Positions 12,272 through 54,357 of a DNA stretch of 64,000 nucleotides are shown here, in pieces. The notes below the pieces were generated by a model. It was not told the DNA's origin and did not search any database. It saw nothing but the letters and a program-made list of their open reading frames with translations. Origin of the DNA: Parcubacteria group bacterium (GTDB taxonomy: Bacteria > Patescibacteriota > Minisyncoccia > JACPHC01); contig JACPHC010000006.1 of the NCBI GenBank assembly GCA_016188775.1, positions 618 to 64,617 on the forward strand, given 5' to 3'. Both the position numbers and the translations under genes were made by a program. Within the stretch, counting starts at the first letter, position 1; each line of letters starts with the position of its first letter.

Positions 12272-12277
12272 TAGACT

Positions 12278-13449: not shown

Positions 13450-13485
13450 TGAATGGACATATAATAAAAATATTCTACAATCGAA

Positions 13486-13567
13486 GTCATTGCGAGGCGA
13501 TTAAATCGCCGAAGCAATCTCTCGACAATTGAGATTACTTCGTCGGCTTATGCCTCCTCATAATGAC
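13486..13567. repeat. Copy C of the family-1 miniature palindromic element, lying inside the gap that splits VirB4
   Basis: GTCATTGCGAGGCGATTAAATCGCCGAAGCAATC ... CTCATAATGAC. Confidence 0.7.
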
Positions 13568-13668
13568 AAACAAATTATTTATTTGATTTGAGAATAGTAA
13601 TAGTTACTTATAGGATATTTGGCGAATGCATAATAATGCTATCAAATCTCACAATTAAAATTTGAACC

Positions 13669-15444: not shown

Positions 15445-15455
15445 AAAAATAATTT

Positions 15456-24242: not shown

Positions 24243-24704
24243 TCAAGCCCAAGCCGCGATGGCTATGGCTAAAGCGTCGGCGGCGTCATCCGGCTTTGGG
24301 ATTTTTTTTAAATTCAGTAATTTTTGAACCATAAGGCTAACTTGTTTTTTATCGGCTCGGCCGTAAGAAGTCAAGGATTGCTTGACTTGAATCGGCGTCA
24401 CTTCTTTTATTTTTAAATTCATTTTTTGGGCCAAAAGTAAAATAACTCCTCTGATTTCGGCGATATTCAAAGCGGTTTTTGCGTTTTTGGCAAAAAAAAG
24501 CCGCTCAATGGCCAAAAAATTTGGATTTTGTTTTTGAATAATTTTTGAAAGGGAATCATGGAGAATCATTAGCCGCTCCGATTGCGCGAGCGTTTTGGCG
24601 GTTTCCAAACAGCCATAATCCAGGCAGGAGATTCGACTGTTATTTTTTAATATAATGCCGTATCCCAACCGGGCGATTCCTGGATCAATTCCTAAAATAA
24701 TCAT
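24243..24704 (-). CDS. ruvC: Holliday junction resolvase RuvC
   Basis: MIILGIDPGIARLGYGII... with catalytic Asp/Glu pattern. Confidence 0.85.
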   Translation of the reverse strand: MIILGIDPGIARLGYGIILKNNSRISCLDYGCLETAKTLAQSERLMILHDSLSKIIQKQNPNFLAIERLFFAKNAKTALNIAEIRGVILLLAQKMNLKIKEVTPIQVKQSLTSYGRADKKQVSLMVQKLLNLKKIPKPDDAADALAIAIAAWA

Positions 24705-24744
24705 AAAACTTTTTTACGAAATAATTTTTCGGAATAATAACAAG

Positions 24745-24831
24745 AAGTCATTCTAAAATTTTTTAGGCACCCTCGGCGGATTATATAATTTGATTAAAGA
24801 GCCTCGACCTTAAAAATTTTTAGAATAACTT
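24745..24831 (-). repeat. Family-2 ~86-bp element, with termini AAGTATYCTAAAAATTTTT / AAAAATTTTTAGRATACTT and a core containing TTATATAAT. It lies 40 bp upstream of ruvC in the same orientation
   Basis: The reverse complement aligns with the copies at 38299-38384 and 39737-39822, with a few mismatches. Confidence 0.7.
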
Positions 24832-24934
24832 CTTTAATTATTATAAGCGAAAGAAAGGGGTTTTTGAAAATCGTCTTTAAAAATCCCTTTCGCTTATTTT
24901 AAAAAAATATTTCGCAAGAGGCCTATAATATTAT

Positions 24935-25675
24935 TCAATTTTTTATGTTTGAATATATTTCCTGAACGTCTTCCTGATCGTCTAAGGCTTCAAAAAGCTC
25001 TTCAATTTTCTTTTTTGCCGCCTGATTAGTTATTTGAACGGGATTTTTAGCCACCAAATCAATCGAAGCCGAGATTATTTCAACCCCTTTTTTAATAAGC
25101 CTGTTTTTTATATTTTCAAGATTTTCCGGTTTCGCGTAAACGTCAATTTTTTCTTCGTGCGATTCTAAATCTTCGGCTCCGGCCTCGATAATATCCAATT
25201 CCTTGTTTTCGTCAATTTTATTTTTTTTAATTTCAATAACGGCCCTTTTTTCAAACATCCAGGAAACCGATCCCGGCTCGGCCAACTTGCCTTCGTATTG
25301 GGAAAGAATGTGTTTGATTTCTGCCACGGTTCTATTGCGGTTATCCGTGATCGCTTCCAGCATTAGAGCCGTTCCTCCCGGTCCGTAAGCTTCATAGATT
25401 ACTTCTTCAAAATTAGACGTTTCTTTTTCGCCCACTCCCTGCCTTGTCGGCAGGGAGGCTTTTTTAATCGCCCGGTCAATCGAATCATTGGGCATATTGA
25501 AGGTTTTGGCTTTTTCAATCGCCAATTTCAGCTGATAGTTAATGTTTGGGTTATCTCCTTTTTCTTTGACCGCCAGAATGATGTTTTTTGAAAGTTTGGA
25601 AAATAGCTGACCTCTTTTTTGATCAGCTATGCCTTTTTTATGTTTAATTTGAGACCACTTAGAATGCCCGGACAT
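24935..25675 (-). CDS. YebC/PmpR-family probable transcriptional regulatory protein
   Basis: MSGHSKWSQIKHKKG... is the canonical N-terminus. The gene is linked to ruvC as in many bacteria. Confidence 0.85.
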   Translation of the reverse strand: MSGHSKWSQIKHKKGIADQKRGQLFSKLSKNIILAVKEKGDNPNINYQLKLAIEKAKTFNMPNDSIDRAIKKASLPTRQGVGEKETSNFEEVIYEAYGPGGTALMLEAITDNRNRTVAEIKHILSQYEGKLAEPGSVSWMFEKRAVIEIKKNKIDENKELDIIEAGAEDLESHEEKIDVYAKPENLENIKNRLIKKGVEIISASIDLVAKNPVQITNQAAKKKIEELFEALDDQEDVQEIYSNIKN

Positions 25676-25678
25676 TTT

Positions 25679-26191
25679 TTAGTGTTTAGTTTTTAGCGCC
25701 TCTTCCCACCAATAATTGATAATTTTTTTGACTTCATTTGGATGAGGAATTGAATTGAAAATAAAAGGCTCTTTTTCAGCGGCAGTATAAATTTTTAAAT
25801 CGCCAAAGTCAAGCCAGGTGGCGATAAAACCGTTAATCTCGATATTGATATTCTGAATAGTTGAAAGGCGAAATTCGTGAGTTTCTTGATTAAAATATCC
25901 TTTTTGCTCAACTTCTAAAATTCTTTCATTAGTAAGAACCAGGTAATCTAAAAGATAATCAAAGATAATAAAAAAAGCTGTTCCAATCAAAAAAAGAGCA
26001 TAAAGAGATGAAGACAAGAAAAAAAATTTGAGAAATATCCCCCCTGTTTCAAGAGGAAGGGATTTAATTATCAGCCAGATAAAAATCGGCATAAAAATTA
26101 AAACAACTAAAACGGCCAGTTTTGCGTATATCGTGAAATAATGCCGTCTGGAGATCAAAAGTATTTTTTCATCGGAAGGAATATCTATCAT
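25679..26191 (-). CDS. Membrane protein with two N-terminal TM helices and a C-terminal PH-like domain, function unknown
   Basis: 170 aa. Confidence 0.4.
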   Translation of the reverse strand: MIDIPSDEKILLISRRHYFTIYAKLAVLVVLIFMPIFIWLIIKSLPLETGGIFLKFFFLSSSLYALFLIGTAFFIIFDYLLDYLVLTNERILEVEQKGYFNQETHEFRLSTIQNINIEINGFIATWLDFGDLKIYTAAEKEPFIFNSIPHPNEVKKIINYWWEEALKTKH

Positions 26192-26236
26192 AAAAAATTT
26201 TAATTTTCAATTTCTAATTTCTAAATAGTTTTAAAA

Positions 26237-26449
26237 TTACGCGTTGAAAATTTCACTCCAAGGGATATTTAAAAAAGCAAAAATTGATATCAAGATAGAG
26301 ACAATAGAGATAATTGAGAAAATAAAAATTACTTTATTGACGATGGAATCGCCTTTGACGGCGAATTTTTTTAAATGCCAGACATTAAGAGAGAAAAAAA
26401 CCGCGTAAATTCCGAGAATAAAAATATAGATTAAAAGTGGCAGCAGCAT
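26237..26449 (-). CDS. Small hydrophobic protein, 70 aa
   Basis: Two TM helices. It lies between ruvB and the 170-aa membrane protein. Confidence 0.3.
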   Translation of the reverse strand: MLLPLLIYIFILGIYAVFFSLNVWHLKKFAVKGDSIVNKVIFIFSIISIVSILISIFAFLNIPWSEIFNA

Positions 26450-26454
26450 ATTTA

Positions 26455-27492
26455 TTACAGCAATTTATTTTGTCTTTCTTGATCAGTGAGAGAATTTAGT
26501 CCCAGATGTTTGTAGGCCATTGTGGTAGCTAATCGGCCCTTGGGAGTTCTTTCAATAAAACCGCGCTGAAGTAAAAAAGGTTCGTAGATATCGGCGATCG
26601 TGTCTTCTTCTTCAGCCGTGGCCGCGGCCAGGGCTCTTAAGCCGACCGGCCCGCCTTTGAAACGGTGAATTATAGTTTCCAAAAGTTTTCGGTCCGTCGG
26701 CTCAAGCCCTTTTTCGTCAATTTCCAGCATTTTTAAGGCTTCTTGAGCGACGTTTTCATCAATAATATTTAAATTTTTTACTTGCGCGAAATCGCGAGAT
26801 CGTTTGAGCAGGCGGTTGGCGGTTCTGGGGGTGGCGCGGCTGGATTTGGCAATGATATTCTTCGCTTCTTTTGAGACATTGACGTTTAAAATTTTAGCCG
26901 ATCGGGCGATAATATTTTCAATATCTTCTATTTCATAAAAACCAAGGCGAAAAGTGACGCCGAAGCGCGATCTTAAAGGGCCGGATAAAAGATCGATTCG
27001 GGTCGTTGCCGCCACTAATGTAAAAGGAGGAAGGTCGAGTTGGATACTTCGGGCGCCCGGGCCTTTGCCGATAATGATATTTAAATGACGGCTTTCCATG
27101 GCCGGATAAAGAATTTCTTCAACCAGTTTATTTAAACGATGAGCCTCGTCAATAAAAAGAATTTCATTGGGTTCCAGATTGGTTAAAATAGCGGCCAGAT
27201 CCCCGCCGCGTTCAATAGCCGGACCGGAAGTCACTCGGCAGAGAGCGGACATTTCTTTGGCGATTAAATGAGCCAAAGTTGTTTTGCCCAACCCGGGCGG
27301 GCCGTATAAAAGCACGTGCTCAATGGTTTCATTCCTTTTTTTGGCCGCCTCGGTCAGAATTTTGACGTTTTCTTTTATTTTTTTTTGGCCAATAAAATCG
27401 TTCCAGCTTTTGGGCCGTAAAGCCAGATCTATTTCTTTATCTTTAACCTCTTTTTCTTTAGGTCTTGACAAATCTTCGTCTTTCATATACAA
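26455..27492 (-). CDS. ruvB: Holliday junction branch-migration helicase RuvB
   Basis: AAA+ Walker [15 protein letters not shown], Walker [11 protein letters not shown], plus a winged-helix C-terminus. Confidence 0.95.
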
Positions 27493-27665
27493 TATATAAG
27501 CATCAATTATGCTCTCATCAACCTCTAGGCAATTAAGGCATTACCATGACTTAAAGGGATTTTTCTTAGTTTTGGGTAATTGGGCCGCGGCGCGATTATT
27601 CCTCGGGAAAATCTTTAACTCCGAGAGACTTCGGAGTCTTGCCTAGAGATTGATGGGATCATAAT

Positions 27666-29324
27666 TCAACCGACCACGCTTTCTACTTCATTGATTGAAG
27701 TTAATCCTTGAAGTATTTTCAAAAATCCGTCTTGTTTTAAAGTGATCATTCCTTTTTTGATGGCCAAATCTTGAATGGCGAATTGGGAAGGGGAAGAGAG
27801 AATCAAATTTTTCATTTTCTCGTTCATTTCCAGAATTTCCACTATGGCTACTCGGCCCTTATATCCCGTGTTATTGCATTCCGGGCAGCCAGTCTCCCGG
27901 AATATTTTTGTTTGGGCGTTTAAAGGTTGGGAGAGAAAATTAGCCGGAACGTTTTTGAGAATCGTTTTGATTTTTTTTAATTCTTCTTGAGTCAATTTAT
28001 CTTCTTTTTTGCATTCTTGGCAGAGTTTGCGGACCAGACGTTGGGCAACGGCAAGATTGAAAGCCGCGGCAATAATGGCCGGATTCATGTCCATTTCAAT
28101 CAAGCGGGGAATGGTGCCGGCCGCGTCATTGGTATGCAGAGTGGAAAAAACCAGATGGCCAGTCAGGGCGGATTGCAGAGCGATTTCAGCCGTTTCTTTA
28201 TCCCGCATTTCGCCGATTAAAATCACGTCCGGGTCTTGGCGTAAAATTGAGCGCAGAGCCGTGGCGAAAGTGTAACCTTTGTCCGGCGCGACTTGAGTTT
28301 GAGTGATGCCGGCCAAATGGTATTCCACCGGATCTTCAACTGTGATGATTTTCATTTCCGGCGAATAGACTCTTTTTAAAAAAGCGTAGAGCGTGGTGGT
28401 TTTTCCCGAACCGGTCGGCCCGGTCATAACAATCATGCCGTTGGGTTTGACTATTTCTCTCTCAAATGTTTTCAAGGCGTCGGGACGAAAACCCAGTTCG
28501 TTTAATTCGACATTTATCGCTTTGGGATTTAAAATTCTCAAGACGATGTTTTCGCCCCAGGCGCCCGGAGCTAGCGCGACTCTGACTTCCACGGATTCGT
28601 CAGCCAGCAAAATGGTGAAACGGCCGTCTTGAGCCCGGTCCCGAATATTGATTTTTAAACCGGCCAAAAGCTTTATTCTGGAAAGGATTTGATTGTAAAT
28701 TTTGGGATTAAAAAAGAAAATATCCTGCAAAGAGCCGTCGATGCGAAGCCTTAACCGCACTTCTTTTTCCTGGGCTTCAAAATGGATATCCGAAGCGTTT
28801 AAAGTGACCGCGCCGGCGAAAGCGAATTCCAGTATTTTAACGAGTTGAAATCCCTCGAGAGTTTTAAATTTTTTTTCTAAAACTTCAAGATTATTGATTT
28901 TTGTTTTGAATTCTTCCAGTTCTTCTTTATGAATGATAATTTTTCCGGTGATGCTTTCAACGGGTTTTCTGATTCTTTCGTAAACCCGCCAAGCTTTATT
29001 GAGACTGGTCAAAGAAACGACTAAAAGTTGAATGGCGTATCCTTGATTTTTAAGTTCGGAAATAATTATTTTTGTTTCGGCGTTTTCCGGATCAAAAACG
29101 GCTATTTTTAAATTTTTGGCAGTTTTGCCGATGACGGCCAGATAGCCTCGCCGCGATTTATCTTCAGGAATAAGACCGATGGCCTCGGGGCCCGGGGCCA
29201 ATATTGCGAGATTGGCGTAATTGGCGCCGCTTTTAGCGGCTTTTCTTTCAGCTTCTCTTTCCTCGGCTCCCAGGCGCAAGGTCGCCAGTTTTTCTTGTTG
29301 TGTTTTGTCGGAAAAAGTAACCAT
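27666..29324 (-). CDS. GspE/PilB-family secretion or type IV pilus assembly ATPase
   Basis: Walker A MTGPTGSGKTTTLYA. The C-terminal tetracysteine is CQEC...CPEC. An N-terminal GspE_N-like domain is present. Confidence 0.85.
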   Translation of the reverse strand: MVTFSDKTQQEKLATLRLGAEEREAERKAAKSGANYANLAILAPGPEAIGLIPEDKSRRGYLAVIGKTAKNLKIAVFDPENAETKIIISELKNQGYAIQLLVVSLTSLNKAWRVYERIRKPVESITGKIIIHKEELEEFKTKINNLEVLEKKFKTLEGFQLVKILEFAFAGAVTLNASDIHFEAQEKEVRLRLRIDGSLQDIFFFNPKIYNQILSRIKLLAGLKINIRDRAQDGRFTILLADESVEVRVALAPGAWGENIVLRILNPKAINVELNELGFRPDALKTFEREIVKPNGMIVMTGPTGSGKTTTLYAFLKRVYSPEMKIITVEDPVEYHLAGITQTQVAPDKGYTFATALRSILRQDPDVILIGEMRDKETAEIALQSALTGHLVFSTLHTNDAAGTIPRLIEMDMNPAIIAAAFNLAVAQRLVRKLCQECKKEDKLTQEELKKIKTILKNVPANFLSQPLNAQTKIFRETGCPECNNTGYKGRVAIVEILEMNEKMKNLILSSPSQFAIQDLAIKKGMITLKQDGFLKILQGLTSINEVESVVG

Positions 29325-29545
29325 AAATCCTGATTGGATTATTAGACTTTTTTCTAAAGACCTTTTGCAAAATAATTTTTCGTAACGAAATTCGCAAATT
29401 TCGAGCGAAAATTATGAAGAGCGACGAAGCGTATTTTAATTAAAATACGTTGAGGAGCTCTGAATAATTTGTAGCCGAAATTTGAAGATTGCAGTAGAAA
29501 GAATTATTTTACAAAAGGTCTTATAATTATTTTACTTTAAAGGCG

Positions 29546-30052
29546 CTACTTTAACAAGCTAAAAAGCCTGATCGCGGTTTCTTTTAAATCGCCGGTTCGG
29601 CTTTGAAAAAAAGCCGTTTCCCTGCTTTCAGTTTTTATTTCGTCCAAGCGGCTGATTTTTCCGATTTTCAAAAATTGATCAACAATATTTTTATTTTCAG
29701 CTTGAATAAATCCTCTGGGTTCTTTTTTGGCGGTTTCGTAGACAACCAGCTGAGTCTTGGCCGGGATAACGTTGGAAAATTTTTTAAAAATTTCAACCAG
29801 ATGAGAGGGTCCGGTGTTGGTTTTTTGAAAATCTTCGTTTTTTAAAATTGAAAAAAAGAATTTTTTTTGCGGGTGATAGGAAGCGCGGGAGGCGATTCGG
29901 CCGAAAAGACGAAGTAAAGGTTGAGAAATTAAAGAGTTTTCTTCTTGATCGAGATAAAGCATCAGGCACTCGCCTTCTTTTTCATAGCGGACTTTATCAA
30001 TTATCGGCATATTGGCGCCTAATTTGATAATGAGTTTTTCTTGAGTTTCCAT
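29546..30052 (-). CDS. Hypothetical protein
   Basis: 168-aa ORF with no recognisable motif. Confidence 0.4.
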   Translation of the reverse strand: METQEKLIIKLGANMPIIDKVRYEKEGECLMLYLDQEENSLISQPLLRLFGRIASRASYHPQKKFFFSILKNEDFQKTNTGPSHLVEIFKKFSNVIPAKTQLVVYETAKKEPRGFIQAENKNIVDQFLKIGKISRLDEIKTESRETAFFQSRTGDLKETAIRLFSLLK

Positions 30053-30108
30053 CTTTGCGTCCTACACTAACGCCGGATTTTTAAGCCGTCAAGTGGATAA
30101 GCGATACG

Positions 30109-30149
30109 CTTACTAAACTAATTGGACGGCCGTCAAATCAGTTCAGTAA
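30109..30149. promoter_or_regulatory. Copy 2 of the GACGGCCGTC-centred palindromic motif (CTTACTAAACTAATTGGACGGCCGTCAAATCAGTTCAGTAA)
   Basis: It lies in the divergent region between the minus ORF starting at 30052 and tsaE at 30205. A partial direct repeat TAAGCCGTCAAG lies just upstream at 30083. Confidence 0.6.
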
Positions 30150-30204
30150 AGTTTGAAATTGATTATCCCTTTTTTTATTATAAATAAATCTGATAAAATT
30201 AATT

Positions 30205-30654
30205 ATGCGTTTAAAAATTATTTCCCAAAACGCGAAAGAGACTCAAAAAATCGCTTTTATTTTAGGCCAAGCAATACGCAAAGAAAAAGGCCGCCGAACT
30301 GCTCGGGTAATCGCCCTGGAGGGCAATTTAGGCAGCGGTAAAACTATTTTTACGCAAGGGTTGGCCAAGGGGTTAAAAGTGAAAGGGCGAGTTCTTTCTC
30401 CGACTTTTATTTTGATGAGGCCGCACCAGTTAGGGAAATTTCAAGGCTGTTTTTATCACATTGACAGTTATCGCTTAAAAGGAGAAACTGATCTTTTAAA
30501 TTTGGATTTTGAAACTATTTTCAAAGAGCCGAAAAATATTATTGTTATTGAATGGCCGGGCCGGGTCAAAAAAATTCTGCCCCAAGACGCGATTTGGATT
30601 AAATTTAAAATAATTGGAAAATTAAAGAGAGAGATTTCTTTTTTAATAAAATAA
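30205..30654 (+). CDS. tsaE: tRNA threonylcarbamoyladenosine biosynthesis protein TsaE
   Basis: P-loop LEGNLGSGKTIFTQGLAKGL and the expected ~150 aa size. Confidence 0.8.
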   Translation: MRLKIISQNAKETQKIAFILGQAIRKEKGRRTARVIALEGNLGSGKTIFTQGLAKGLKVKGRVLSPTFILMRPHQLGKFQGCFYHIDSYRLKGETDLLNLDFETIFKEPKNIIVIEWPGRVKKILPQDAIWIKFKIIGKLKREISFLIK

Positions 30655-30661
30655 AATCGCT

Positions 30662-33256
30662 ATGCCTAAATTAATTCTAATTGATTCTCACGCCCTGATT
30701 CATCGGGCCTATCACGCCTTGCCGCCTTTGATTACTAAAAAAGGCGAAGTGGTCGGCGCGGTTTACGGTTTTTCCAGTCTTTTGATTAAAATTATTAAAG
30801 AGATGAGACCGGATTATCTGGTCGCGGCTTTTGACAGGCCGGAGCCGACTTTTCGGCACGAAGAATATAAAGAATACAAAGCTCAAAGACCCCCTACGCC
30901 ATCGGATTTGGAATCCCAGTTCGTCGTCGTGAAAGATGTTTTAAGGGCTTTTTCTATTCCGGTTTTGGAAAAATCCGGCTATGAGGCTGACGACATTATC
31001 GGCGCGATTGCCCAGAAAATAAAAAAAGAGAAACCGAATATTGAAATAATTATTTTAAGCGGCGATTTGGATTTGCTTCAATTGGTTGATTCCAACGTTT
31101 CGGTTTTGGCTTTAAAAAAAGGAATTTCCGAGACAATTCTTTACGATCTCAAGGCTATTAAATTAAGATACGACCTTTTACCCGAAGAGTTGGTGGATTA
31201 TAAAGCGTTGGTCGGCGATCCATCCGATAATATTCCCGGGGTTCGAGGCATTGGCCCTAAAAGAGCGACGGAACTCGTTAAAAAATACGGCCCAGTTGAA
31301 AATATGAAAGATTTTTTGAAAGAGGAAGAATACAAAATAGCTCTTTTTTCAAAAAAATTAACCAAGATAAATCGAGACGTTCCGATGGAATTTGACTTGG
31401 AAAAAGCGCGTTTTTCTTTGACGGTCACAACCAAAATTAAAGAAATTTTTCACGAATTAGGCTTTAAAACATTAATGGCGCGCCTGGAGCCTCAAAAAAC
31501 GCTTTTTGAGATAAATCAAGAAAAAATGGCTGGTCAAAAAAATAACGGGCTAAAAAATGAATTTAGACCGCTGGGAAGTGAAAATATCCAGGATTTCGCA
31601 AACACGGCTAAAAAACGGGGGAATTTACTAATTATTTACGATGAAAAGGAGGCGGAATTTTTTGTTTCAGCGGATAATCAAAATTTTTTCCAGTTGGATA
31701 AAAATAATGCCACTTTTGATAAAAGAGTTTTAGAAATTATTTGGCCATTATTAAAAGATGAAAAAATCGAAAAATGGGGCTGGGATTTAAAGCCGTTTTT
31801 GAAGATAATAATGAAGCCAAACGAGCCAAGCAACGATTTTTTGTCATGGTTGGACAAGAATCGGTTTATTGATCTTAAAATCGTTGCCTGGCTTTTAGAT
31901 TCGGGCCGGAGATCTTACAATTTAAAAGAAATTTTATCGTTTGAAACCGGCCAAGAAACTTATGAAGGACTTTTGATTTTGAAAAATATTTTTTTGGCCA
32001 ATATCAAAAAATTGGGATTGGAAAAAGTTTTTTTTGAAATTGAGACGCCTCTTATTCCGATTTTAGCTAAAATGGAAAACCGGGGGATTTCAGTCAATCA
32101 AAAGCAACTGGCCCAAATGGCTCAAAAATTTGAAAAAGAAACAGCTGATTTAAAAAATAAAATTTTTTATCTGGCCGGCGGCAATTTTAATCCCAATTCC
32201 GGCCGGGAACTCAAAGAGGTTCTTTTTGAACGTTTAAAAATTTCAAAAGCCGGACTTAAAAAGACTCCCAAAGGAGAAATTTCCGTCGCGGCCGATGAAC
32301 TTTTAAAACTGGAACAGGCGCATCCGATTGTTCCTTTGATGTTAAAATTGCGGGAGTTGACGAAATTAAAATCCACCTATATCGACCCTTTGCCTGATTT
32401 AATAGATAAAAAAGATAATCGGATCCATACCGCATTTTTTCAGACAGGCACCGCCACCGGTCGGTTGAGTTCGGCCAGTCCCAATTTGCAGAATTTGCCG
32501 GCTCGTTCGGAATTTTCAAAAGATATCAGGAGTATTTTTGAAGCCAGTCCGGGTTTTGAGTTCGCGGCTTTTGATTATTCCCAGCTTGAACTTCGCATTA
32601 TCGCTTCTTTGGCCAATGATGAAAAAATGATCGCCGCTTTTAAAAAAAACGAAGATATTCATGTCCGAGTGGCGGCGGAAATTAATAATGTTCCCGTTGA
32701 GAAAGTGAGCGGCCAGATGCGTCAGGCGGCCAAAGCCCTGAATTTCGGCTTGATTTACGGCATGGGGATTTTAGGCTTTGCCAAAAGCGCCGGCATTTCC
32801 CGGGAGGAAGCCGAGTCTTTTATGGCCGAATATTTCGCTGATTTTGCCGGCCTCGCCCATTATATTGAATTTTTTAAAGAAGAAGCGCGTAAAAACGGAT
32901 TGGCCAGAACCGTTTTTGGGCGGGTTCGATTTTTGCCGGAGATTAATTCGCCTCGGGAAAATTTACGGAAAGAAGCGGAGCGAATGGCCGTGAATATGTC
33001 GGTGCAGGGACTGGCCGCGGATATAATGAAGCTCGGCATGAATAAAATCGAACAACAATTGGGCGGATCCGAGGAAGTATTTTTGATTCTTCAAATTCAC
33101 GACGAATTGGTGTTTGAAATAAAATCTGATAAAATAAAAGAAAATGTCGCCATTATCAAAAATATAATGGAGAATATCTATGATTTGAAATCCGGTCTTA
33201 AGGTTGATATCGAATCCGGCAATAATTTAGGAAATTTAAAAAGCGTAAATATATGA
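30662..33256 (+). CDS. polA: DNA polymerase I
   Basis: The 5'-3' exonuclease N-terminus (LILIDSHALIHRAYHAL) is present. Polymerase motif A is DYSQLELRI, motif B is RQAAKALNFGLIYG and motif C is LQIHDELVFE. Confidence 0.95.
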   Translation: MPKLILIDSHALIHRAYHALPPLITKKGEVVGAVYGFSSLLIKIIKEMRPDYLVAAFDRPEPTFRHEEYKEYKAQRPPTPSDLESQFVVVKDVLRAFSIPVLEKSGYEADDIIGAIAQKIKKEKPNIEIIILSGDLDLLQLVDSNVSVLALKKGISETILYDLKAIKLRYDLLPEELVDYKALVGDPSDNIPGVRGIGPKRATELVKKYGPVENMKDFLKEEEYKIALFSKKLTKINRDVPMEFDLEKARFSLTVTTKIKEIFHELGFKTLMARLEPQKTLFEINQEKMAGQKNNGLKNEFRPLGSENIQDFANTAKKRGNLLIIYDEKEAEFFVSADNQNFFQLDKNNATFDKRVLEIIWPLLKDEKIEKWGWDLKPFLKIIMKPNEPSNDFLSWLDKNRFIDLKIVAWLLDSGRRSYNLKEILSFETGQETYEGLLILKNIFLANIKKLGLEKVFFEIETPLIPILAKMENRGISVNQKQLAQMAQKFEKETADLKNKIFYLAGGNFNPNSGRELKEVLFERLKISKAGLKKTPKGEISVAADELLKLEQAHPIVPLMLKLRELTKLKSTYIDPLPDLIDKKDNRIHTAFFQTGTATGRLSSASPNLQNLPARSEFSKDIRSIFEASPGFEFAAFDYSQLELRIIASLANDEKMIAAFKKNEDIHVRVAAEINNVPVEKVSGQMRQAAKALNFGLIYGMGILGFAKSAGISREEAESFMAEYFADFAGLAHYIEFFKEEARKNGLARTVFGRVRFLPEINSPRENLRKEAERMAVNMSVQGLAADIMKLGMNKIEQQLGGSEEVFLILQIHDELVFEIKSDKIKENVAIIKNIMENIYDLKSGLKVDIESGNNLGNLKSVNI

Positions 33257-33660
33257 CAAAAAACATTATTTTAATTTTAGCGATTATTTTGGTTGTCGGC
33301 GGTTTGGGTTATTACAGTTTTTACGGCTCATCGTCTTCGCCGTCTTCTTCCGCGACGACTCCTTTGACAAGCCCGGAATCCTCCGCTAAAGAATGGAATG
33401 TTATTTACGAGAATAATAAATTTAATCCCGATTCTCTGAAAATTAAATTCGGAGATATTGTTATTTTTGAAAATCTCGGCGATTTTCCAATGTGGCCGGC
33501 TTCCAATCCTCATCCGGCTCACAGCGATTTGGCCGGCTTTGACGCTCTTCGAGGCTATATTCAAAACGAATCTTATAAATTTGTTTTTACTCAAAAAGGC
33601 GCTTGGAGCTATCACAATCATTTAAATCCCGAAGCCGGCGGTAAAATCATCGTGGAATAA
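33253..33660 (+). CDS. Secreted small protein with a cupredoxin-like beta-sandwich pattern. No Cys ligand is present
   Basis: Signal or TM helix, Ser-rich linker, then ...KIKFGDIVIFEN...YKFVFTQKGAWSYHNHLNPEAGGKIIVE. Confidence 0.35.
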   Translation: MTKNIILILAIILVVGGLGYYSFYGSSSSPSSSATTPLTSPESSAKEWNVIYENNKFNPDSLKIKFGDIVIFENLGDFPMWPASNPHPAHSDLAGFDALRGYIQNESYKFVFTQKGAWSYHNHLNPEAGGKIIVE

Positions 33661-33884
33661 TGCGTAAGAATTAACAGCGTTATTTACATCATAATATCGT
33701 CTTTGATAATTCGCCAAGAAAACCCTTCGCGGGCCGAGCGGGCATGGTTTCGCCAAAGGCGAAGAGCGAGGCCGAGATGGAGCGCAATTTCCCGCCGGGG
33801 AAATTGATAGCGTGTTTTCGAGCGAATCGTCAAAAGCGATAGAATATTTAAAAATGAAAACAGCGCTATGAAATTTTACAAATA

Positions 33885-35135
33885 ATGCAAATTCTTTTAA
33901 CCATCGCTCCTCTGATTTTAGGGGCGGCTATTATATTTTCCGGCATTCTTTTTTTGGTTTTTCTGCTTTTATTTTTTCGCAGCGTCAATAAGCGTGAACG
34001 GGTTATTAAAACCGAGAGAGATTTTTTTGAAAATTTGATTGACAGCCTTGAAGACGGCGCGATTTTTATTAATCGGGAGAATAAAATGACGGTTATTAAC
34101 AAAACCTCGGAATCGCTTTTAGAAATTCAAAGAGCCGATACTTTAGGCCTGGATATTGAAGCCGAAATTTTGGAAAGAGAGAAATTTCGCACGCTTCGCC
34201 AAGTTTTAACTCCGGCCTTGGCTTCTTCTTTTCGAATCCTTTCAAAATCGGAAGATAGAGAGGAGATAGTTGAAATTTTAATCAAAGAGCCCCGGGAAAA
34301 AACTTTTTTAGTCACGAGTTTGCCGATTTACGCGGCTGGGACAGCTGATCGGATCGGATACTTAAAAATTATTAGAGACATATCTCGGGAAAAAGCCCTG
34401 GAGCGGGTGCGTTCGGAATTCATTACTATCGCCGCTCATCAGCTTCGGACGCCTCTCGCGGCCATTAAATGGTCTTTAAAAATGCTTCTTGATGAAGATT
34501 TGGGAGGTATAAGCGGCGAGCAAAAAGACATTCTTCAAAAAGGCTATGATTCCAATGATCGAATGATTCAACTGGTTTCCGAGCTTTTAGACGCGGCCAG
34601 AATCGAGGAGGGCCGGTTCGGCTACGAATTCATCGAAACTGATTTTATTTCTTTTATGGAAGATGTTGTTAATAATTTAAAAAAACAAGCCGAAGAAGCC
34701 GGCGTAAAACTTTTTTTGCGTAAACCTAAAGAATCAATTCGGCCGATTAAATTTGATCCGAATAAATTAAGACTGGTGGTGGAAAATTTGATCGATAACG
34801 CGATTCGTTACACCTTGTCGGGCGGCCAGATTGATGTTATGATTGAAAAAGACCCCTCTTTTATTAAAGTTAAAATCGAAGATACGGGAGTGGGTATTCC
34901 GGCTCATCAATTAAGCCGCCTTTTTACGAAATTTTTCCGCGGCGAAAATGTTATGCGGCTTCAGACTGAAGGCAGCGGCCTTGGGCTTTTCATTTCCAAA
35001 AATATTATCGAAGGACATAACGGAGAAATTTGGGCCGAATCTCAGGAAGGCAAAGGCAGCAGTTTTTATTTCACGATTCCAATCGAATCCCAGATGACTT
35101 CCAAAAAGGGCGTTTCTTTTGGTAAAATTGTGTAG
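33885..35135 (+). CDS. Sensor histidine kinase (two TM helices, PAS-like, HisKA and HATPase_c domains)
   Basis: H-box IAAHQLRTPLAAI, N-box LIDNAIRYT, and G-boxes DTGVGIP and GSGLGL. Confidence 0.9.
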   Translation: MQILLTIAPLILGAAIIFSGILFLVFLLLFFRSVNKRERVIKTERDFFENLIDSLEDGAIFINRENKMTVINKTSESLLEIQRADTLGLDIEAEILEREKFRTLRQVLTPALASSFRILSKSEDREEIVEILIKEPREKTFLVTSLPIYAAGTADRIGYLKIIRDISREKALERVRSEFITIAAHQLRTPLAAIKWSLKMLLDEDLGGISGEQKDILQKGYDSNDRMIQLVSELLDAARIEEGRFGYEFIETDFISFMEDVVNNLKKQAEEAGVKLFLRKPKESIRPIKFDPNKLRLVVENLIDNAIRYTLSGGQIDVMIEKDPSFIKVKIEDTGVGIPAHQLSRLFTKFFRGENVMRLQTEGSGLGLFISKNIIEGHNGEIWAESQEGKGSSFYFTIPIESQMTSKKGVSFGKIV

Positions 35136-35163
35136 TGGAAAAATATATGATATAATTTCAAAT

Positions 35164-35946
35164 ATGCCGAAACGGATACTTATTATAGAAGACGAGGAAA
35201 TACTTCTCGACCTTTTGCAAAATAAATTGGAAAAGTCCGGCTACGAAGTAATGGCCGCGCGAGACGGAATGGAGGGCCTTTCGGCCATGGAAAAAGAAAA
35301 ACCGGATTTGATTCTGCTCGATATCCTGATGCCGGTAATGAACGGAATGGAGGTTTTGAAAATAATGCATCGGAATAAAATTTTGTCCGAGATTCCCGTC
35401 ATCATTCTTTCCAATTCGGGACAGGAAGTGGAAGTGGATGAAGCCGTCAAATTAGGCGCGAAAGATTATTTAATCAAGGCGGAATTTGACCCCGACGAAG
35501 TTTTGGAAAAAGTTAAAAAACAATTAAGCGAAGATCCAATGCCCAACGAAGAAAAATTGCCAACCGAATCAACGCGTATTTTGCTCGTTGAAGACGACAA
35601 GTTTTTGCGCGATTTAATTTCGCAAAAATTAATTAAAGAGGGATTTAATTTGTCCGTGGCCATTGACGGCGAAGAAGGATTGAAAAAAACCTTGGAAGAA
35701 AAGCCTCAATTGGTTCTGCTGGATATTATTTTGCCCGGCATAGACGGTTTTGAAGTTTTAAGCAAAATTCGCGCCAACGCCGAAACGGCCAAAACGCCGG
35801 TGATTCTTTTGTCTAATCTCGGAGCCAAAGATGATGTTGAGAGGGGATTGCAGTTGGGCGCGGACGATTATATGATCAAGGCTCATTTCACGCCCGGGGA
35901 AATTATCGCCAAAGTGAAAAATATCATCCAATTGAAGCATTCGTAA
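35164..35946 (+). CDS. Response regulator with two tandem receiver domains and no output domain
   Basis: REC1 runs RILIIEDEE...LILLDILMP...KAEF and REC2 runs RILLVEDDK...LVLLDIILP...KAHF. The start at 35164 is preferred over 35119. Confidence 0.85.
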   Translation: MPKRILIIEDEEILLDLLQNKLEKSGYEVMAARDGMEGLSAMEKEKPDLILLDILMPVMNGMEVLKIMHRNKILSEIPVIILSNSGQEVEVDEAVKLGAKDYLIKAEFDPDEVLEKVKKQLSEDPMPNEEKLPTESTRILLVEDDKFLRDLISQKLIKEGFNLSVAIDGEEGLKKTLEEKPQLVLLDIILPGIDGFEVLSKIRANAETAKTPVILLSNLGAKDDVERGLQLGADDYMIKAHFTPGEIIAKVKNIIQLKHS

Positions 35947-35954
35947 AAAGTTTT

Positions 35955-36830
35955 ATGCCCGAGTTGCCAGAAGTGGAAACAATCGTTCGGGATTTAAAGA
36001 AAAAAATCATCGGCCGGAAAATTATCGACGCTTGGGTCGATACGCCGAAATTGATCAAAAATCCGAAAAATTTTTCCGATTTTAAAGAAAAAATAAAAAA
36101 CAGAAAAATTCTGGACGCTTGGCGAAGAGGCAAGAATATTATTTTAAGTTTATCGGGCGGAAAAACTTTATTGATTCATCAGAAAATGACCGGCCATCTT
36201 TTGGTGGGTCAATGGAAATGGCAAAAAAATAATTGGCAGCCAATTGGCGACGGCTATCTTAAAGAAAAGGTGAACAATTATATTCATCTTTTATTTTTTT
36301 TAGATGACAACCGGATGTTCGCGTTGTCGGACGTAAGAAAATTTGCCAAAGCGATTTTAATTGATTCGGAAAACTTAAATCAACTTTCGGATATAAAAAA
36401 TCTCGGTCCGGAGCCGCTGGATAAAAAATTTACTTTTGCTAAATTCAAAGAAAGATTAAAAAATAAAAAAGGAAAAATTAAACAAATTTTATTGAATCAG
36501 GAAATTATCGCCGGATTGGGCAATATTTACGCCGACGAAACTTTGTTCTTGGCTCGCCTTCATCCAACGCGGCGACTGGAGAGCCTAAATAACGCAGAGC
36601 TGGCGCGGATTTATAAATCCAGCCGATTGGTTTTAAAAAAAGCCATCCGTTTGAGGGGAACTTCCATCAGCGATTACCGCGATACCGCGGGCAAACCCGG
36701 CGGCTATGATAAAGTCCGCTTGGTTTATCGCAGAGAAGGCGAAAAATGCCCCAGGCCTTGCCAAGGTCTGGTTCAACGGATTAAAATCGGAAACAGATCC
36801 GCTCATTTTTGCCCAAAATGCCAGAAATAA
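35955..36830 (+). CDS. mutM: Formamidopyrimidine-DNA glycosylase
   Basis: N-terminal MPELPEVE and a C-terminal zinc finger C..C...C..C. Confidence 0.9.
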   Translation: MPELPEVETIVRDLKKKIIGRKIIDAWVDTPKLIKNPKNFSDFKEKIKNRKILDAWRRGKNIILSLSGGKTLLIHQKMTGHLLVGQWKWQKNNWQPIGDGYLKEKVNNYIHLLFFLDDNRMFALSDVRKFAKAILIDSENLNQLSDIKNLGPEPLDKKFTFAKFKERLKNKKGKIKQILLNQEIIAGLGNIYADETLFLARLHPTRRLESLNNAELARIYKSSRLVLKKAIRLRGTSISDYRDTAGKPGGYDKVRLVYRREGEKCPRPCQGLVQRIKIGNRSAHFCPKCQK

Positions 36831-36835
36831 ATAAT

Positions 36836-36870
36836 TTACGAGGCTTAGCCTCGTAAATTAATATTTTTTC
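36836..36870 (+). terminator. Rho-independent terminator after mutM
   Basis: tttacgaggcttagcctcgtaaa followed by a T tract. Confidence 0.55.
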
Positions 36871-36897
36871 AAACTTATCTCATCATCTTTAATTTAA

Positions 36898-37827
36898 ATG
36901 CTTTATTTTCTTTACGGCGAGGACTCGTACCGGGCTCGCCAAAAATTAAACGAAATTATCAACGAATATCAAAAGAAAAATTCCGGCCTTTTGAATTTTT
37001 CCCGTTTTGATCTCGAAGAAGATCTTATAAATAAAATTTTTGATGAGTCGCGGAATGCCAATTTATTGGGTAAAAAATTAACGGTTGTTGAAAATATTTC
37101 TTTTTTACCGAAAAATTTCGAGGAAAAATTTATCAAAACTTTGGATTTTTTAAAAAACGATAAAGAAATAATTATTGTTTTATTTGAGCCTGGGAAACTG
37201 GACGCTAAAAAGAAAATCTTTAAAGAGCTGAAAGAAATCGCTAAAAATCAGGAATTTAAAAAAATAACCGGCCGAGAATTGGCGGTTTGGACCAAAAAAG
37301 AAATTAAAGCCGAAGGAGGCGAGATTGACAGCCAAGTCCTTGATCTACTGATCGGACTTTTTCAGAACTCATGGGAAATCGCTTCGGAGATTAAAAAACT
37401 TGTCAATTATTCGCCGAAAATCAGCGAAGAGAGTATTTTAACTTTGTCGCAGAATCGAGCGGAGGTCAGCGTTTTTAAATTCATTGATTCGATACTGGCA
37501 AAACAAAAATATCAGTCTTTAATTTTATTGGAAAAAATTTTAAAAAATGGAGAATCGGAGCTTAATGTTTTGGGTCTTTTGGCTTATTATTTTCGCAATC
37601 TTTTAAGATTAAATTCTTTAAATCAAAAAGGATTGAGCGGGCGAGAAGCGGCGGCCGCGGCCGGTCTTCATCCCTACGCCGCTTCCAAAATGACCGCGGC
37701 TTTTAGATTTTTCGGCCTTCAAGAATTAAAAAAATTCTATTCTCAAATTTTGAAAATAGAATTTTTGATTAAAAGCGGTCAAATCGATCCTCGCGACGGT
37801 CTTTGGCAGTTCTTGCTTGATGTTTAA
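36898..37827 (+). CDS. holA: DNA polymerase III delta subunit
   Basis: MLYFLYGEDSYRARQKLNEI N-terminus and the expected ~310 aa size. Confidence 0.75.
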   Translation: MLYFLYGEDSYRARQKLNEIINEYQKKNSGLLNFSRFDLEEDLINKIFDESRNANLLGKKLTVVENISFLPKNFEEKFIKTLDFLKNDKEIIIVLFEPGKLDAKKKIFKELKEIAKNQEFKKITGRELAVWTKKEIKAEGGEIDSQVLDLLIGLFQNSWEIASEIKKLVNYSPKISEESILTLSQNRAEVSVFKFIDSILAKQKYQSLILLEKILKNGESELNVLGLLAYYFRNLLRLNSLNQKGLSGREAAAAAGLHPYAASKMTAAFRFFGLQELKKFYSQILKIEFLIKSGQIDPRDGLWQFLLDV

Positions 37828-37884
37828 AAATTTACTTTATTATGTGCTCGTTTAATATTTTATGACTGACGATGCTGTTAAAAT

Positions 37885-37973
37885 GTCATTGCGAGCGACC
37901 GAAGGAAGCGAAGCAATCTCAAAAACTCGCATAAATATAAGATTGCCACGGCGTCTTCGACGCCTCGCAATGA
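37885..37973. repeat. Copy D of the family-1 miniature palindromic element
   Basis: GTCATTGCGAGCGACCGAAGGAAGCGAAGCAATC ... GATTGCCACGGCGTCTTCGACGCCTCGCAATGAC. Confidence 0.8.
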
Positions 37974-38009
37974 CAAAAAGCGAATTCTCTAATGGTTTGC
38001 GGAATAAGT

Positions 38010-38276
38010 CTATTTGACTGATTTATTCAAAGAAAGCGAGAGACGGGACTTTAAACGGCTGGCTCGGTTTTTTTTAATGAGATTAATTTTGGCGGATTTA
38101 TCCAAGATTTTAAAAACCGCTGGTAAATTTTTTTTAGCCTCGGCTATTTTTTTGCCTTTAACGAAAGAGCGAAAAATCTTGATCGCGTCTTTAAGGGCGT
38201 TTAATTTCTTTAAATTTTTTATTCTGTTTCTTTGGCTTTTTCTTAAAGCTTTTTTGGCTGATTTTGTGATTGGCAT
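38010..38276 (-). CDS. rpsT: 30S ribosomal protein S20
   Basis: MPITKSAKKALRKSQRNRIKN... Confidence 0.85.
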   Translation of the reverse strand: MPITKSAKKALRKSQRNRIKNLKKLNALKDAIKIFRSFVKGKKIAEAKKNLPAVFKILDKSAKINLIKKNRASRLKSRLSLSLNKSVK

Positions 38277-38298
38277 ATTTGTTAAAATAATGATAAAT

Positions 38299-38384
38299 AA
38301 GTATCCTTAGAAATTTTTGAGGTCGAGGCGCTTTAATGAAATTATATAATCCGCCGAGGGTACCTAAAAATTTTTAGGATACTT
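38299..38384 (+). repeat. Family-2 ~86-bp element upstream of the ccdA-like gene
   Basis: AAGTATCCTTAGAAATTTTTGAGGTCGAGGCGCTTTAATGAAATTATATAATCCGCCGAGGGTACCTAAAAATTTTTAGGATACTT. Confidence 0.8.
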
Positions 38385-38473
38385 ATTGAAAATATCATAT
38401 TCCAAAATAGGAAGTCAAATCAATCAAATTCGTAAATTTTGTTTGCAAAATAAAATTATGGTATAATTTTTAT

Positions 38474-39715
38474 ATGGAACAAAATCCAATGCCCCAAAAC
38501 TTAACTAATCAAACCGAAGCCAGATGGCGCTATTTGTTTGTTATTTTGGCTATTTTGCTTTTTCTTATTTTTATAGGTGGCCTTTTTTGGATTTTTACGG
38601 TTTTCAAGGGTTCGCCCATAGGTTTGGGCTGGTTTTTATTCAGTTTTGCCGCCGGGCTTTCAATGATCGTTCTTCCTTGCACTTTGCCTTTGGCCTTTGT
38701 GATCGTGCCTCTTTCAATGGGCAAGGGCTACGTCAAGGGATTTTTAATCGCCTTGAGTTTTGGTTTGGGCGTGGCCATTACTTTAAGTTTTTACGGGGTT
38801 TTGGCCGCGATTTTAGGCAAGGCGATTTTGGGAGCGGCGGCTGGAATCGAGGTGGTTAAAAATATTTTTTACGTTATTGCCGGTATTTTCGCCATTATTT
38901 TTTCTTTGGGCGAGCTGGGATTTTTAAAAATTCGTCTGCCGAGCTACACGGGCGCGGCCCCGGGGTTTATTCAAAGAAAAAATGATATTTTGAAAGCTTT
39001 GCTTTTGGGGCTGTTTTTGGGTAATATCGGCATTGGCTGTCCGCATCCGGCCACCCCGATTATTTTGGGGCAAATTGGCATCGTGGGCAATGTTTTTTAC
39101 GGCTGGCTTTTATTTTTTATTCACGCTATTGGCCGAATCATTCCGCTTTTACTGCTCGCGGTTTTAGGAATTTTGGGCATTAACGCGACCAAGGGCTTGC
39201 TCAAGCATAAAGACGCGATTGGCCGAGCCACGGCTTGGGGAATGGTTTTTGTCGGCGCTTTTCTTTTCACTTTGGGATTTTTTTCTCACGATTGGTGGGT
39301 CGCCTCCGGCACTCATTCGCTTTTGGAAGTTGTGACACAAGAAGAGCGGATTATTGATATTTTAGGCCAACGCTTAGGAGCCGGCCGCGGTCATGCCCAC
39401 GGTTTTGAAGAAATCATTGGCAAGGCCGGATTTTTCGGATTGCCGTTATGGCTGGGCAACTGGGTTTTTGTAGCTTTGATGGTTATTCCTATCTGGTGGC
39501 ATTGGCGGCGGGAAAAAAAACGAGTGGCGATTTTGCCGGAGCCGGAAAAAATCAATGAGAACAAGGTATTATTATGGAAAAAATGGTTTTTTATCGCTCT
39601 GACCATTCTTTTAGCCGTCTTATTTATTTGGGCGATTCCTCTTTGGTTCCGGCATCAGGCTGACGAACATAAGGAGATGATTGATAATCACGTTGGCCGG
39701 ATTGAAAATAAATAA
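38474..39715 (+). CDS. CcdA/DsbD-family thiol-disulfide transfer membrane protein (extended)
   Basis: Polytopic. The motifs are Cys1 in LSMIVLPCTLPL and Cys2 in GIGCPHPATP. Confidence 0.55.
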   Translation: MEQNPMPQNLTNQTEARWRYLFVILAILLFLIFIGGLFWIFTVFKGSPIGLGWFLFSFAAGLSMIVLPCTLPLAFVIVPLSMGKGYVKGFLIALSFGLGVAITLSFYGVLAAILGKAILGAAAGIEVVKNIFYVIAGIFAIIFSLGELGFLKIRLPSYTGAAPGFIQRKNDILKALLLGLFLGNIGIGCPHPATPIILGQIGIVGNVFYGWLLFFIHAIGRIIPLLLLAVLGILGINATKGLLKHKDAIGRATAWGMVFVGAFLFTLGFFSHDWWVASGTHSLLEVVTQEERIIDILGQRLGAGRGHAHGFEEIIGKAGFFGLPLWLGNWVFVALMVIPIWWHWRREKKRVAILPEPEKINENKVLLWKKWFFIALTILLAVLFIWAIPLWFRHQADEHKEMIDNHVGRIENK

Positions 39716-39736
39716 TTTTTAGTTTTTTAATTTAAT

Positions 39737-39822
39737 AAGTATTCTAAAAAATTTTTGAGGTCGAGGCGCTTTAATGAAATTATATAATCCGCCGAGGGTA
39801 CCTAAAAATTTTTAGGATACTT
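39737..39822 (+). repeat. Family-2 ~86-bp element upstream of the thioredoxin-like gene
   Basis: It is nearly identical to 38299-38384. Confidence 0.8.
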
Positions 39823-39849
39823 ATTGAACATTATTTTATCAAAAAGTTT

Positions 39850-40104
39850 ATGATTCTTTTAGAAGAAGTGGTGGCGCCGGGCTGCCACATTTGCAAAGAA
39901 TTTGAAAAATTTTGGGAAACGATCAAGGGAGATTTTCCCAATGTTGAGTTTAAAAAAATTGACGTTACCGCGCCTGAAGGAATGGCCATAGCCCAAAAAT
40001 ATATGATTTTCGCTTCCCCGGGAATTATTATCAATAATGAACTTTTTTCCACCGGCGGGTTTGACAAAGAAAAAATCGTGAAAAAATTGAAAGAGCTGTC
40101 GTAA
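39850..40104 (+). CDS. Small thioredoxin/glutaredoxin-like protein (CxxC = CHIC)
   Basis: 84 aa, APGCHICKEF. Confidence 0.5.
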   Translation: MILLEEVVAPGCHICKEFEKFWETIKGDFPNVEFKKIDVTAPEGMAIAQKYMIFASPGIIINNELFSTGGFDKEKIVKKLKELS

Positions 40105-50670: not shown

Positions 50671-50834
50671 AAAATAAGAATTAAAAGCGAAGGAAATGGA
50701 TTTTTAAAATCGCAGGCGTGGTCGGCTAAATTTGCGAAGCAAATTTAGGGCTACGGCGATTTTAAAAAATCCGTTTCCGAAGAGTTATAATTTTGCGTTG
50801 CGTTTTATTTTTTAAGATTATATGATTAAATGTA

Positions 50835-54316: not shown

Positions 54317-54357
54317 AAATTAAACAGCTCAAAATATAATACCTTGAATTGCAAAAT

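Follow-up and report, generated by a model that had tools for sequence, protein, structure and literature searches.

Three palindromic repeats in intergenic spacers

The DNA analysed here (referred to as the window) is a stretch of 64,000 nt from contig JACPHC010000006.1 of a Parcubacteria group bacterium, and it carries three full copies (A, B and C) of a palindromic repeat, together with a partial or variant copy (D) at its right end. The proteins encoded beside the repeats point to a metagenome-assembled genome of an uncultured member of the Parcubacteria group (Candidate Phyla Radiation [CPR], or Patescibacteria); YebC matches an NCBI entry with 100% identity, and the best relatives of the CcdA protein are Azambacteria- or Wolfebacteria-like. 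Copy A (24722–24853, minus strand) lies in the 230-nt spacer between genes coding for YebC/TACO1 (24935–25675, minus) and RuvC (24243–24704, minus). Copy B (38278–38408, plus strand) lies in the 197-nt spacer between the divergently transcribed genes for ribosomal protein S20 (rpsT, 38010–38276, minus, ATG at 38276) and a DsbD_TM/CcdA-like protein (38474–39715, plus, ATG at 38474), with a left arm (from 38278) that begins only 2 nt away from the start codon of rpsT. Copy C (39716–39846, plus strand) fills the entire 134-nt spacer between the ccdA-like gene and a Thioredoxin_3 gene (trx, 39850–40104, plus).

An earlier sequence-only reading had described three full copies, each positioned 20–80 bp upstream of, and co-oriented with, a ruvC, a ccdA-like or a thioredoxin-like gene. 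Both the copies and the identities of the downstream genes (RuvC, a DsbD_TM/CcdA-like protein and Thioredoxin_3) are borne out, the copies by core pattern matches and by repeat finding. The distance to the start codon holds for A (40 nt) and C (27 nt), and fails for B (89 nt). The upstream and co-oriented placement is accurate as a description but nearly uninformative, as the median intergenic spacer in the window is 30 nt, and in so compact a genome any intergenic insertion lies both just 3′ of one gene and just 5′ of another. Because B is located between divergent genes, only A and C are informative as to orientation, and agreement of two out of two is expected by chance with a probability of 0.25.

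The family is defined by a 45-nt core with 93–100% identity across the three copies, with inverted arms on either side. In copy A (~115–132 nt) the left arm, core and right arm occupy positions 24853–24811, 24810–24766 and 24765–24722, and in copy B positions 38278–38319, 38320–38364 and 38365–38408; the core of copy C is at 39758–39802. A 41-nt core pattern, in which both positions where A departs from B and C were entered as N, matches without mismatch at the specified positions at 24769–24809 (minus), 38321–38361 (plus) and 39759–39799 (plus), compared to a chance expectation of 0 hits in shuffled sequence. By repeat finding, B and C share 96% identity over 98 nt, and A is 85–86% complementary to both. 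With filters off, a covariance model of the three copies scores each of them at 104–120 bits and everything else in the window at 20 bits or below, such that there are no further copies in the 64 kb; arm-only or solo copies are also absent from the window. A match at 54572 was considered as a solo copy and rejected as a three-mismatch chance match inside a coding-looking region.

The element as a whole lacks coding capacity, with stop codons in every frame across the core on both strands, and copy A lacks the one ATG that the core otherwise has. Peptides from a six-frame translation were dropped as bait for more copies, no frame being open beyond ~21–26 aa of element-derived sequence. The right flanks of A and C share a likeness, AAAAAGTTT(T)ATGATT.TTTTAG, that was rejected as part of the element; it is native N-terminal coding sequence, since the trx gene of a relative carries ATTATTTTAGAAGAAG and RuvC starts with MIILG.

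Copy D (63963–64000, plus strand) is situated 3′ of a Trp_Tyr_perm-like permease gene and is cut by the end of the window. Its first 31 nt (63963–63993, TATAATAATTAAAGAAGTTATTCTAAAAATT) are identical to A and comprise 14 nt of the left flank of A followed by 17 nt of its arm; D then reads CTAGAAT where the full copies read TTTAAGG or TTTGAGG, a divergence that begins 7 nt before the window end. What had been proposed as a probable fourth copy starting at 63977 is thus not a standard full one, and from its sequence D may be a core-less hairpin (ATTCTA-AAAATTC-TAGAAT).

Arms, core and fold

When each left arm is compared with the reverse complement of each right arm, similarity extends for ~35–45 nt outward from the core on both sides, giving a unit of ~115–130 bp, so that the ~86 bp first assigned to it is too short. 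The inner 24 nt of the arms form a near-perfect inverted repeat, with similarity reaching out to ~35–45 nt, and the consensus of arm and core edge, read from outer to inner, is TTTnG..(W)ATAATAAT..AATAAGTATCC TAAAAATTTTTAGG. The inverted termini noted previously are real, and each copy folds as one long hairpin; the terminal sequences given for them apply to B and C but not to A, which reads AAGTTATTCT.../...AGAATGACTT, with compensating changes.

The hairpins have minimum free energies of −29 to −32 kcal/mol and z scores of −4.7 to −6.4, and none of 200 shuffled sequences is as stable. The core, AGGTCGAGGCgCTTTAATgAAATTATATAATCCGCCGAGGGTaCC, contributes a short GGCG/CGCC helix and an apical loop containing ATTATATAAT, a perfect 10-bp palindrome without strand that forms the hairpin apex (A, 24780–24789; B, 38341–38350; C, 39779–39788). 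This palindrome is invariant in all three copies and presents TATAAT on both strands. The outer stems of A and of B and C differ by compensating changes (AAT/ATT versus AAG/CTT, and TATCC/GGATA versus TTATTC/GAATGA), and in A the GGCG/CGCC helix has lost its innermost pair. Pair counts from RNAalifold are uninformative with three sequences of which two are near-identical, and MAFFT misaligns the arms of A.

The two strands of the repeat are not equivalent in their folding. In all three copies the sense strand, i.e. that matching the downstream gene, folds better than its complement (−36.5 vs −31.6, −35.2 vs −34.0 and −32.0 vs −24.4 kcal/mol), and DNA parameters likewise favour the sense strand in three of three. 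The contiguous stem has five mismatches of the transition type, every one of them G.U in the sense strand (A.C in the other; one-sided p ~0.03, on a count that rests partly on manual realignment of the stems); they include a U.G that copy A has in its inner GGU/GCC helix. There is a single A.C in the ragged outermost part of copy C, and counting that position raises p to ~0.11. This bias lends modest support to the units being transcribed, and tolerated or selected as RNA, in the sense orientation, and sense transcription of A and C is expected from read-through from yebC and ccdA.

A structured-RNA family, whether a small RNA gene in several copies or a cis-acting motif, in which the core is a functional loop or internal loop on a covarying stem, would account for several of these features: a core that is better conserved than the arms, the compensating outer-stem changes, the sense-strand G.U bias, and promoter-like boxes that closely precede the hairpin of A (10/12) and that of B (9/12). 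We nonetheless regard it as quite unlikely. With three sequences, two of them nearly identical, covariation is beyond statistical test, and symmetric changes in the arms are equally expected of terminal inverted repeats (TIRs) recognised by a transposase and belonging to different subfamilies. No terminator-like site is found at or after the hairpin of any copy, the A/U-rich stem being followed by AUUGAA or CUUGUU, and the innermost pair of the core helix is not maintained in A. At gathering thresholds Rfam 15 reports only tRNA-Arg in the window, and a permissive scan gives only sub-threshold miRNA-type hairpins with E >1. Finally, none of the relatives examined and none of the large collections scanned contain the repeat (see below), which would be unusual for a functional RNA.

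Empty junctions in relatives and distribution

The junctions that the three copies occupy are short in related genomes. The ccdA–trx spacer is 9 nt in L035, whose CcdA is 76% identical, versus 134 nt here; in L037 (68% identical) the order ccdA-(small ORF)-trx-DoxX-cupredoxin-P-type ATPase is as in the window, with spacers of 30 and 10 nt (ORF, open reading frame). Upstream of ccdA the spacer is 37 nt in L037 versus 197 nt here. Between yebC and ruvC it is 20 nt in L041–L043 (YebC 56% identical), which keep the order ruvB...yebC-ruvC-small ORF-PBP...dnaN, versus 230 nt here. Neither BLAST nor the covariance model detects a copy of the element in these loci of the relatives. Because all three orthologous junctions are short and empty in syntenic relatives, the copies are lineage-specific insertions rather than a conserved leader, and an element absent from the relatives is not an ancestral leader of ruvC, ccdA or trx. 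In the relatives yebC–ruvC and ccdA–trx are tight co-directional gene pairs, in which trx and ruvC follow the first gene so closely that the two members of each pair must share a transcript.

The repeat also leaves its mark on short-read assemblies. Independent Logan assemblies (k=31) of this organism, made from three sequencing runs, are interrupted within the repeat at all four sites (A–D), with contig L036 starting inside the right arm of B and contigs L001 and L002 breaking at D. L038 and L036 break earlier than the known copies alone predict, so that the samples concerned may contain allelic variants or additional copies. Elsewhere the repeat is not seen: core seeds return only seed-length chance matches from GTDB species genomes (19-mer), JGI metagenomes (17-mer) and IMG/VR (16- and 18-mers), and a 133-nt unit has no BLAST match in phage and plasmid collections. 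A sparse and lineage-limited distribution of this type is the expectation for a young mobile repeat. The nearest relative (Logan runs SRR22387819/20) has a different palindromic repeat, GTTTACAGTTT(A/T)TAATGATTAAAACTGTAAAC, at L035 2850–2888 and L040 1040–1075, located after trx and after yebC in opposite orientations, and the contigs end there. The presence of a different repeat at analogous positions suggests that palindromic repeats turn over in this group.

Several features of the ccdA neighbourhood are recorded here. Copy B sits at a synteny break (38264–38423): rpsT and holA precede ccdA in the window, a small ORF and rpsF-ssb-rpsR do so in L037, and an unrelated 334-aa gene in L035. The genes 3′ of ccdA are conserved (trx, DoxX, cupredoxin and a Cu-type P-type ATPase). 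Many of the CcdA/DsbD_TM homologues in related Parcubacteria (P0003–P0120) are 600–720 aa long, some with multicopper-oxidase domains; the protein encoded here is 413 aa, and a minority of the relatives are likewise ~340–480 aa.

Promoters and transcription

The first proposal of the sequence-only reading, that the element is a portable promoter, a leader or a shared regulator module, is not supported as its primary nature. This proposal holds that the TATAAT of the core starts transcription of the downstream gene and that the two CTAAAAATTTTTAG palindromes flanking this box serve as operators for a common regulator, an arrangement compatible with MITE-like spread (MITE, miniature inverted-repeat transposable element). 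A perfect TATAAT does lie in the most conserved part of the element, and the CTAAAAATTTTTAG palindrome is confined to the elements, with 4 hits in the window versus 0.34 expected. A and C split former operon junctions, where a promoter would be useful, and Correia elements are known to carry functional promoters (PMC10969869). However, ATTATATAAT is a perfect palindrome, and its TATAAT box therefore cannot define a direction. The box has neither of the features expected of a sigma-70-type promoter, there being no −35 of at least 4/6 at 16–18 nt on either strand and no TG extension (the preceding bases are ATTA, not TGn), and a consensus scan gives no core-centred site. In the folded hairpin the box lies in the apical loop. 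Moreover, ruvC, ccdA, trx and rpsT form no obvious common regulon, and the relatives express the same genes without the element. We therefore judge a promoter or regulator cassette to be an unlikely explanation.

The ccdA gene retains a conserved promoter of its own 3′ of copy B. Its native extended −10 box (TGGTATAAT, 38459–38467, plus strand) is positioned 7 nt before the ATG, and an extended −10 (TGnTATAAT) is conserved 9–13 nt before ccdA in two element-free relatives (TGCTATAAT in L035 and TGGTATACT in L037). The extended −10 TGNTATAAT, whose TG the core box lacks, is enriched four-fold in the window (11 versus 2.6 expected), and several of these boxes are 5–16 nt before start codons (e.g. 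those at 7600, 38459, 56432 and 59957). A TG-extended −10 close to the start codon thus appears to be the native promoter design, and the spacing of these boxes also suggests leaderless or very short-leader mRNAs in this host.

Other promoter-like sites lie next to the copies rather than in their cores. Immediately upstream of A is TTCAAA-17-TATAAT (10/12; 24840–24868, minus strand), whose TATAAT belongs to the 31-nt block shared with D and is 8 nt before the hairpin; a terminator-like hairpin (24853–24891, no strand) is located between the yebC stop codon and copy A. Near B, the sites TTGACT-16/18 and TTGATT-18 (38389–38423, minus strand) point toward rpsT across the copy. B leaves no room for a promoter between itself and the rpsT ATG, so that rpsT must be transcribed from within the element or across it, which is a further point in favour of a cassette. 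The TATAAT that A and D share before the hairpin, and the abutment of B on the rpsT start, keep a secondary promoter role alive, and by analogy with Correia and ERIC elements the repeat may have a weak secondary promoter or an effect at the RNA level.

Relationship to known repeats

The ERIC elements of Enterobacteriaceae and Vibrionaceae, also termed IRU, were reportedly described by Hulton et al. in 1991 as imperfect palindromes of ~127 bp. Our comparison of the Parcubacteria repeat with these and with the Correia elements is a functional one, and no membership of either family is claimed. Like ERIC, the repeat belongs to a size class of ~115–130 bp, is an imperfect palindrome throughout with a well-conserved centre, is strictly intergenic and often inside transcription units, where an RNA hairpin is expected, and combines a patchy, lineage-dependent copy number with no known transposase (PMC10969869). 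It differs from ERIC in its Parcubacteria (CPR) host, in its far more A/T-rich arms and in having 3–4 known copies, and no sequence relationship is claimed. The orientation-dependent RNase E effects of ERIC are documented (PMC10969869), whereas for the Parcubacteria repeat such effects are conjecture.

The Correia elements of Neisseria (CREE/NEMIS) resemble the repeat in being units of ~100–150 bp with TIRs of ~26 bp or longer, found near or between genes and carrying −10-like boxes (PMC10969869, PMC2229807). They have promoters, sites for integration host factor (IHF) and RNase III cleavage at their TIRs (PMC10969869); the TIR hairpins are RNase III substrates in Neisseria mRNA (PMC10969869, PMC2229807), and the same effect may be expected of the Parcubacteria repeat. 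For Correia elements a TA target duplication is defined, and they possess an IHF site as well as outward promoters that have been demonstrated by experiment. In the repeat described here no target-site duplication can be defined, the only perfect −10 is a palindrome at the centre and not at an end, an IHF-type site is not recognised, and the copy number appears to be far lower.

The pneumococcal RUP, BOX and SPRITE repeats and the Rickettsia palindromic elements (RPEs) are likewise short non-coding hairpin repeats of small A/T-rich genomes that are intergenic and co-transcribed (PMC3049150, PMC10969869). None of their particular traits is seen in the Parcubacteria repeat, namely the IS630-family partner and TA duplication of RUP, the modular structure of BOX, the terminator-like character of SPRITE and the in-frame location of RPEs within genes. 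Overall, ERIC and Correia are the closest analogues, in their size, the conserved centre (ERIC), co-transcription, RNase III or RNase E effects on mRNA and, in some, the presence of promoters (PMC10969869, PMC2229807, PMC3049150).

REP and REPIN sequences, which are mobilised by RAYT enzymes, are also extragenic palindromes, and inverted pairs of them can form larger hairpins (PMC3116915, PMC3733652). REPs have 20–40-bp G+C-rich stems, GTAG/CGTC heads and an associated RAYT gene, whereas the Parcubacteria repeat is ~4 times longer and A/T-rich with no RAYT gene nearby. The comparison raises the question of whether the repeat is a single-stranded DNA hairpin of REP or attC type, acted on by a tyrosine recombinase or a Y1 (RAYT/IS200-type) enzyme, rather than a TIR transposon of the classical type. 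A single-stranded DNA hairpin would likewise gain stability from strand-asymmetric G.T pairing, and the DNA-parameter folds favour the sense strand in each copy; the hairpins have bulged bases, as do attC sites, and a tyrosine recombinase gene is present at 303–1193. This origin is nevertheless very improbable. The Pfam-scanned ORFs of the window include no RAYT or IS200-type gene, and the element contains no GTAG/CGTC-type REP head and none of the RYYYAAC/GTTRRRY core sites of integron attC sites. The genes between B and C are not cassettes but core genes that are syntenic in relatives, the ccdA-trx-DoxX-cupredoxin-ATPase order being conserved in L037, and the integrase is 23–38 kb away and looks like an ordinary XerC/D-type enzyme.

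Nature of the repeat

We favour, with moderate confidence, the interpretation that this is a lineage-specific palindromic repeat, MITE-like and of the ERIC/Correia class, whose RNA hairpin is responsible for any effect that it has. The unit is short (<~500 bp) and non-coding, has long TIRs, occurs in multiple dispersed copies, and is present or absent at orthologous sites, having inserted into junctions that are short and empty in relatives; its phylogenetic distribution is narrow. These features, together with the Logan assembly breaks, fit the alternative that the sequence-only reading had offered, a MITE landing in 5′ or intergenic regions.

The palindromic unit of ~115–130 bp, with a 45-nt core capped by ATTATATAAT and A/T-rich arms of ~35–45 nt, has been inserted into very short intergenic junctions. 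In the mechanism we propose, it would be non-autonomous, and its movement would require a transposase supplied in trans. Copies A and C would be transcribed by read-through within the mRNAs of their neighbours, and copy B probably as part of the rpsT 5′ untranslated region. In RNA the unit would form a long hairpin of ~40 bp, a stem long enough for RNase III-type cleavage or for a role as an mRNA stability or decoupling element, as for Correia and ERIC. If the palindromic TATAAT acts as a promoter, it would do so weakly, in both directions and in a secondary role.

A number of observations weigh against the repeat being MITE-like. First, the core is more conserved than the arms (42/45 versus 69/95 in A vs B, Fisher p = 0.004; p = 0.04 when only the inner 24 nt of each arm is compared), whereas conservation in a classical MITE should be highest at the termini. 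Secondly, pairing is preserved by the changes that set the arms of A apart from those of B and C, and a conserved core with compensated arms is also typical of a functional RNA or a protein-binding site. Thirdly, the element ends are A/T-rich and ragged, and no target-site duplication can be defined; a TA would suit the left end of A and that of D but is not matched at the right end of A. There are three full copies known, all from the 64-kb window, and no transposase is found among the window ORFs of at least 130 aa that were scanned with Pfam (some smaller and overlapping ORFs being unscanned), the XerC/D-like integrase at 303–1193 being the only recombinase among them. The empty-site relatives are distant (56–76% protein identity) rather than strains of the same species.

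A bolder proposal, to which we attach only a slim probability, is that purifying selection acts on the unit as a mobile module, of structured RNA or of promoter plus operator, with its 45-nt core held on a covarying stem. It would have spread into operon junctions of a reduced CPR genome and rewired expression of essential genes (rpsT, ruvC and the thiol-redox pair ccdA/trx), for example via processing sites or a bidirectional start point. If this were true, the repeat would be a riboregulatory MITE that has been domesticated by an episymbiont in which classical regulators are almost lacking.

Other repeats and regions of the window

The window contains a second and more abundant family of intergenic repeats, with palindromic units of ~38–40 nt, (T)GTCATTGCGAG...GCAATCT / AGATTGC...CTCGCAATGAC, and a REP-like appearance. 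They are found at 1202–1426 (a tandem array), 6264–6379, 13485–13522, 37884–37975, 54350–54465 and 61325–61454, in both orientations and sometimes in tandem, and one cluster is just 3′ of the XerC/D-like integrase gene. The region to which that gene belongs (303–16580) contains the XerC/D-like tyrosine recombinase followed by ~15 kb of ORFs without a Pfam match together with PrgI-like and TraG/VirB4-like P-loop proteins, and may be a type IV secretion-like region or an integrated element. It adjoins rnpA/yidC/dnaA/dnaN (17–21 kb), and is thus near the replication origin.

A 191-nt inverted repeat with 99% identity (56217–56407 and 59756–59946) encloses a 3.3-kb segment encoding a 174-aa ORF and a 917-aa PQQ_2 beta-propeller/fn3 protein. 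The repeat starts 4 nt past tRNA-Arg(CCG) (56139–56213) and has a terminator-like GC hairpin in each arm; the segment between the repeats may be invertible or recently duplicated. The 174-aa and 917-aa ORFs have in common a 117-nt direct repeat of 98% identity (56630–56746 and 57401–57517), which was considered as the template and variable pair of a diversity-generating retroelement and rejected, since its two differences (A/G and C/T) are not adenine-specific as expected. There are also other unique long hairpins in intergenic positions, namely a palindrome of ~166 nt at 29357–29522 between a T2SSE ATPase gene and a 168-aa ORF, a hairpin at 50689–50782 between uvrB and a FemAB-like gene, and the terminator-like hairpin after yebC (24853–24891); a link between the hairpin at 50689–50782 and that upstream of copy A was not significant.

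Implications

CPR genomes are tiny and tightly packed and are usually described as poor in mobile DNA, and in full-text literature searches we found no description of MITE-type repeats in Patescibacteria/CPR. On this basis the repeat would represent a new family, in a group that has received little study; in kind, however, it does not differ from ERIC, Correia and RUP, which have been known since ~1990. It breaks the short-read assemblies of its lineage, as seen in the Logan contigs, and it provides a handle on transcript processing in uncultured organisms. A hairpin repeat that splits former operon junctions and abuts the start of rpsT indicates that compact CPR genomes are still undergoing small-scale insertional remodelling.

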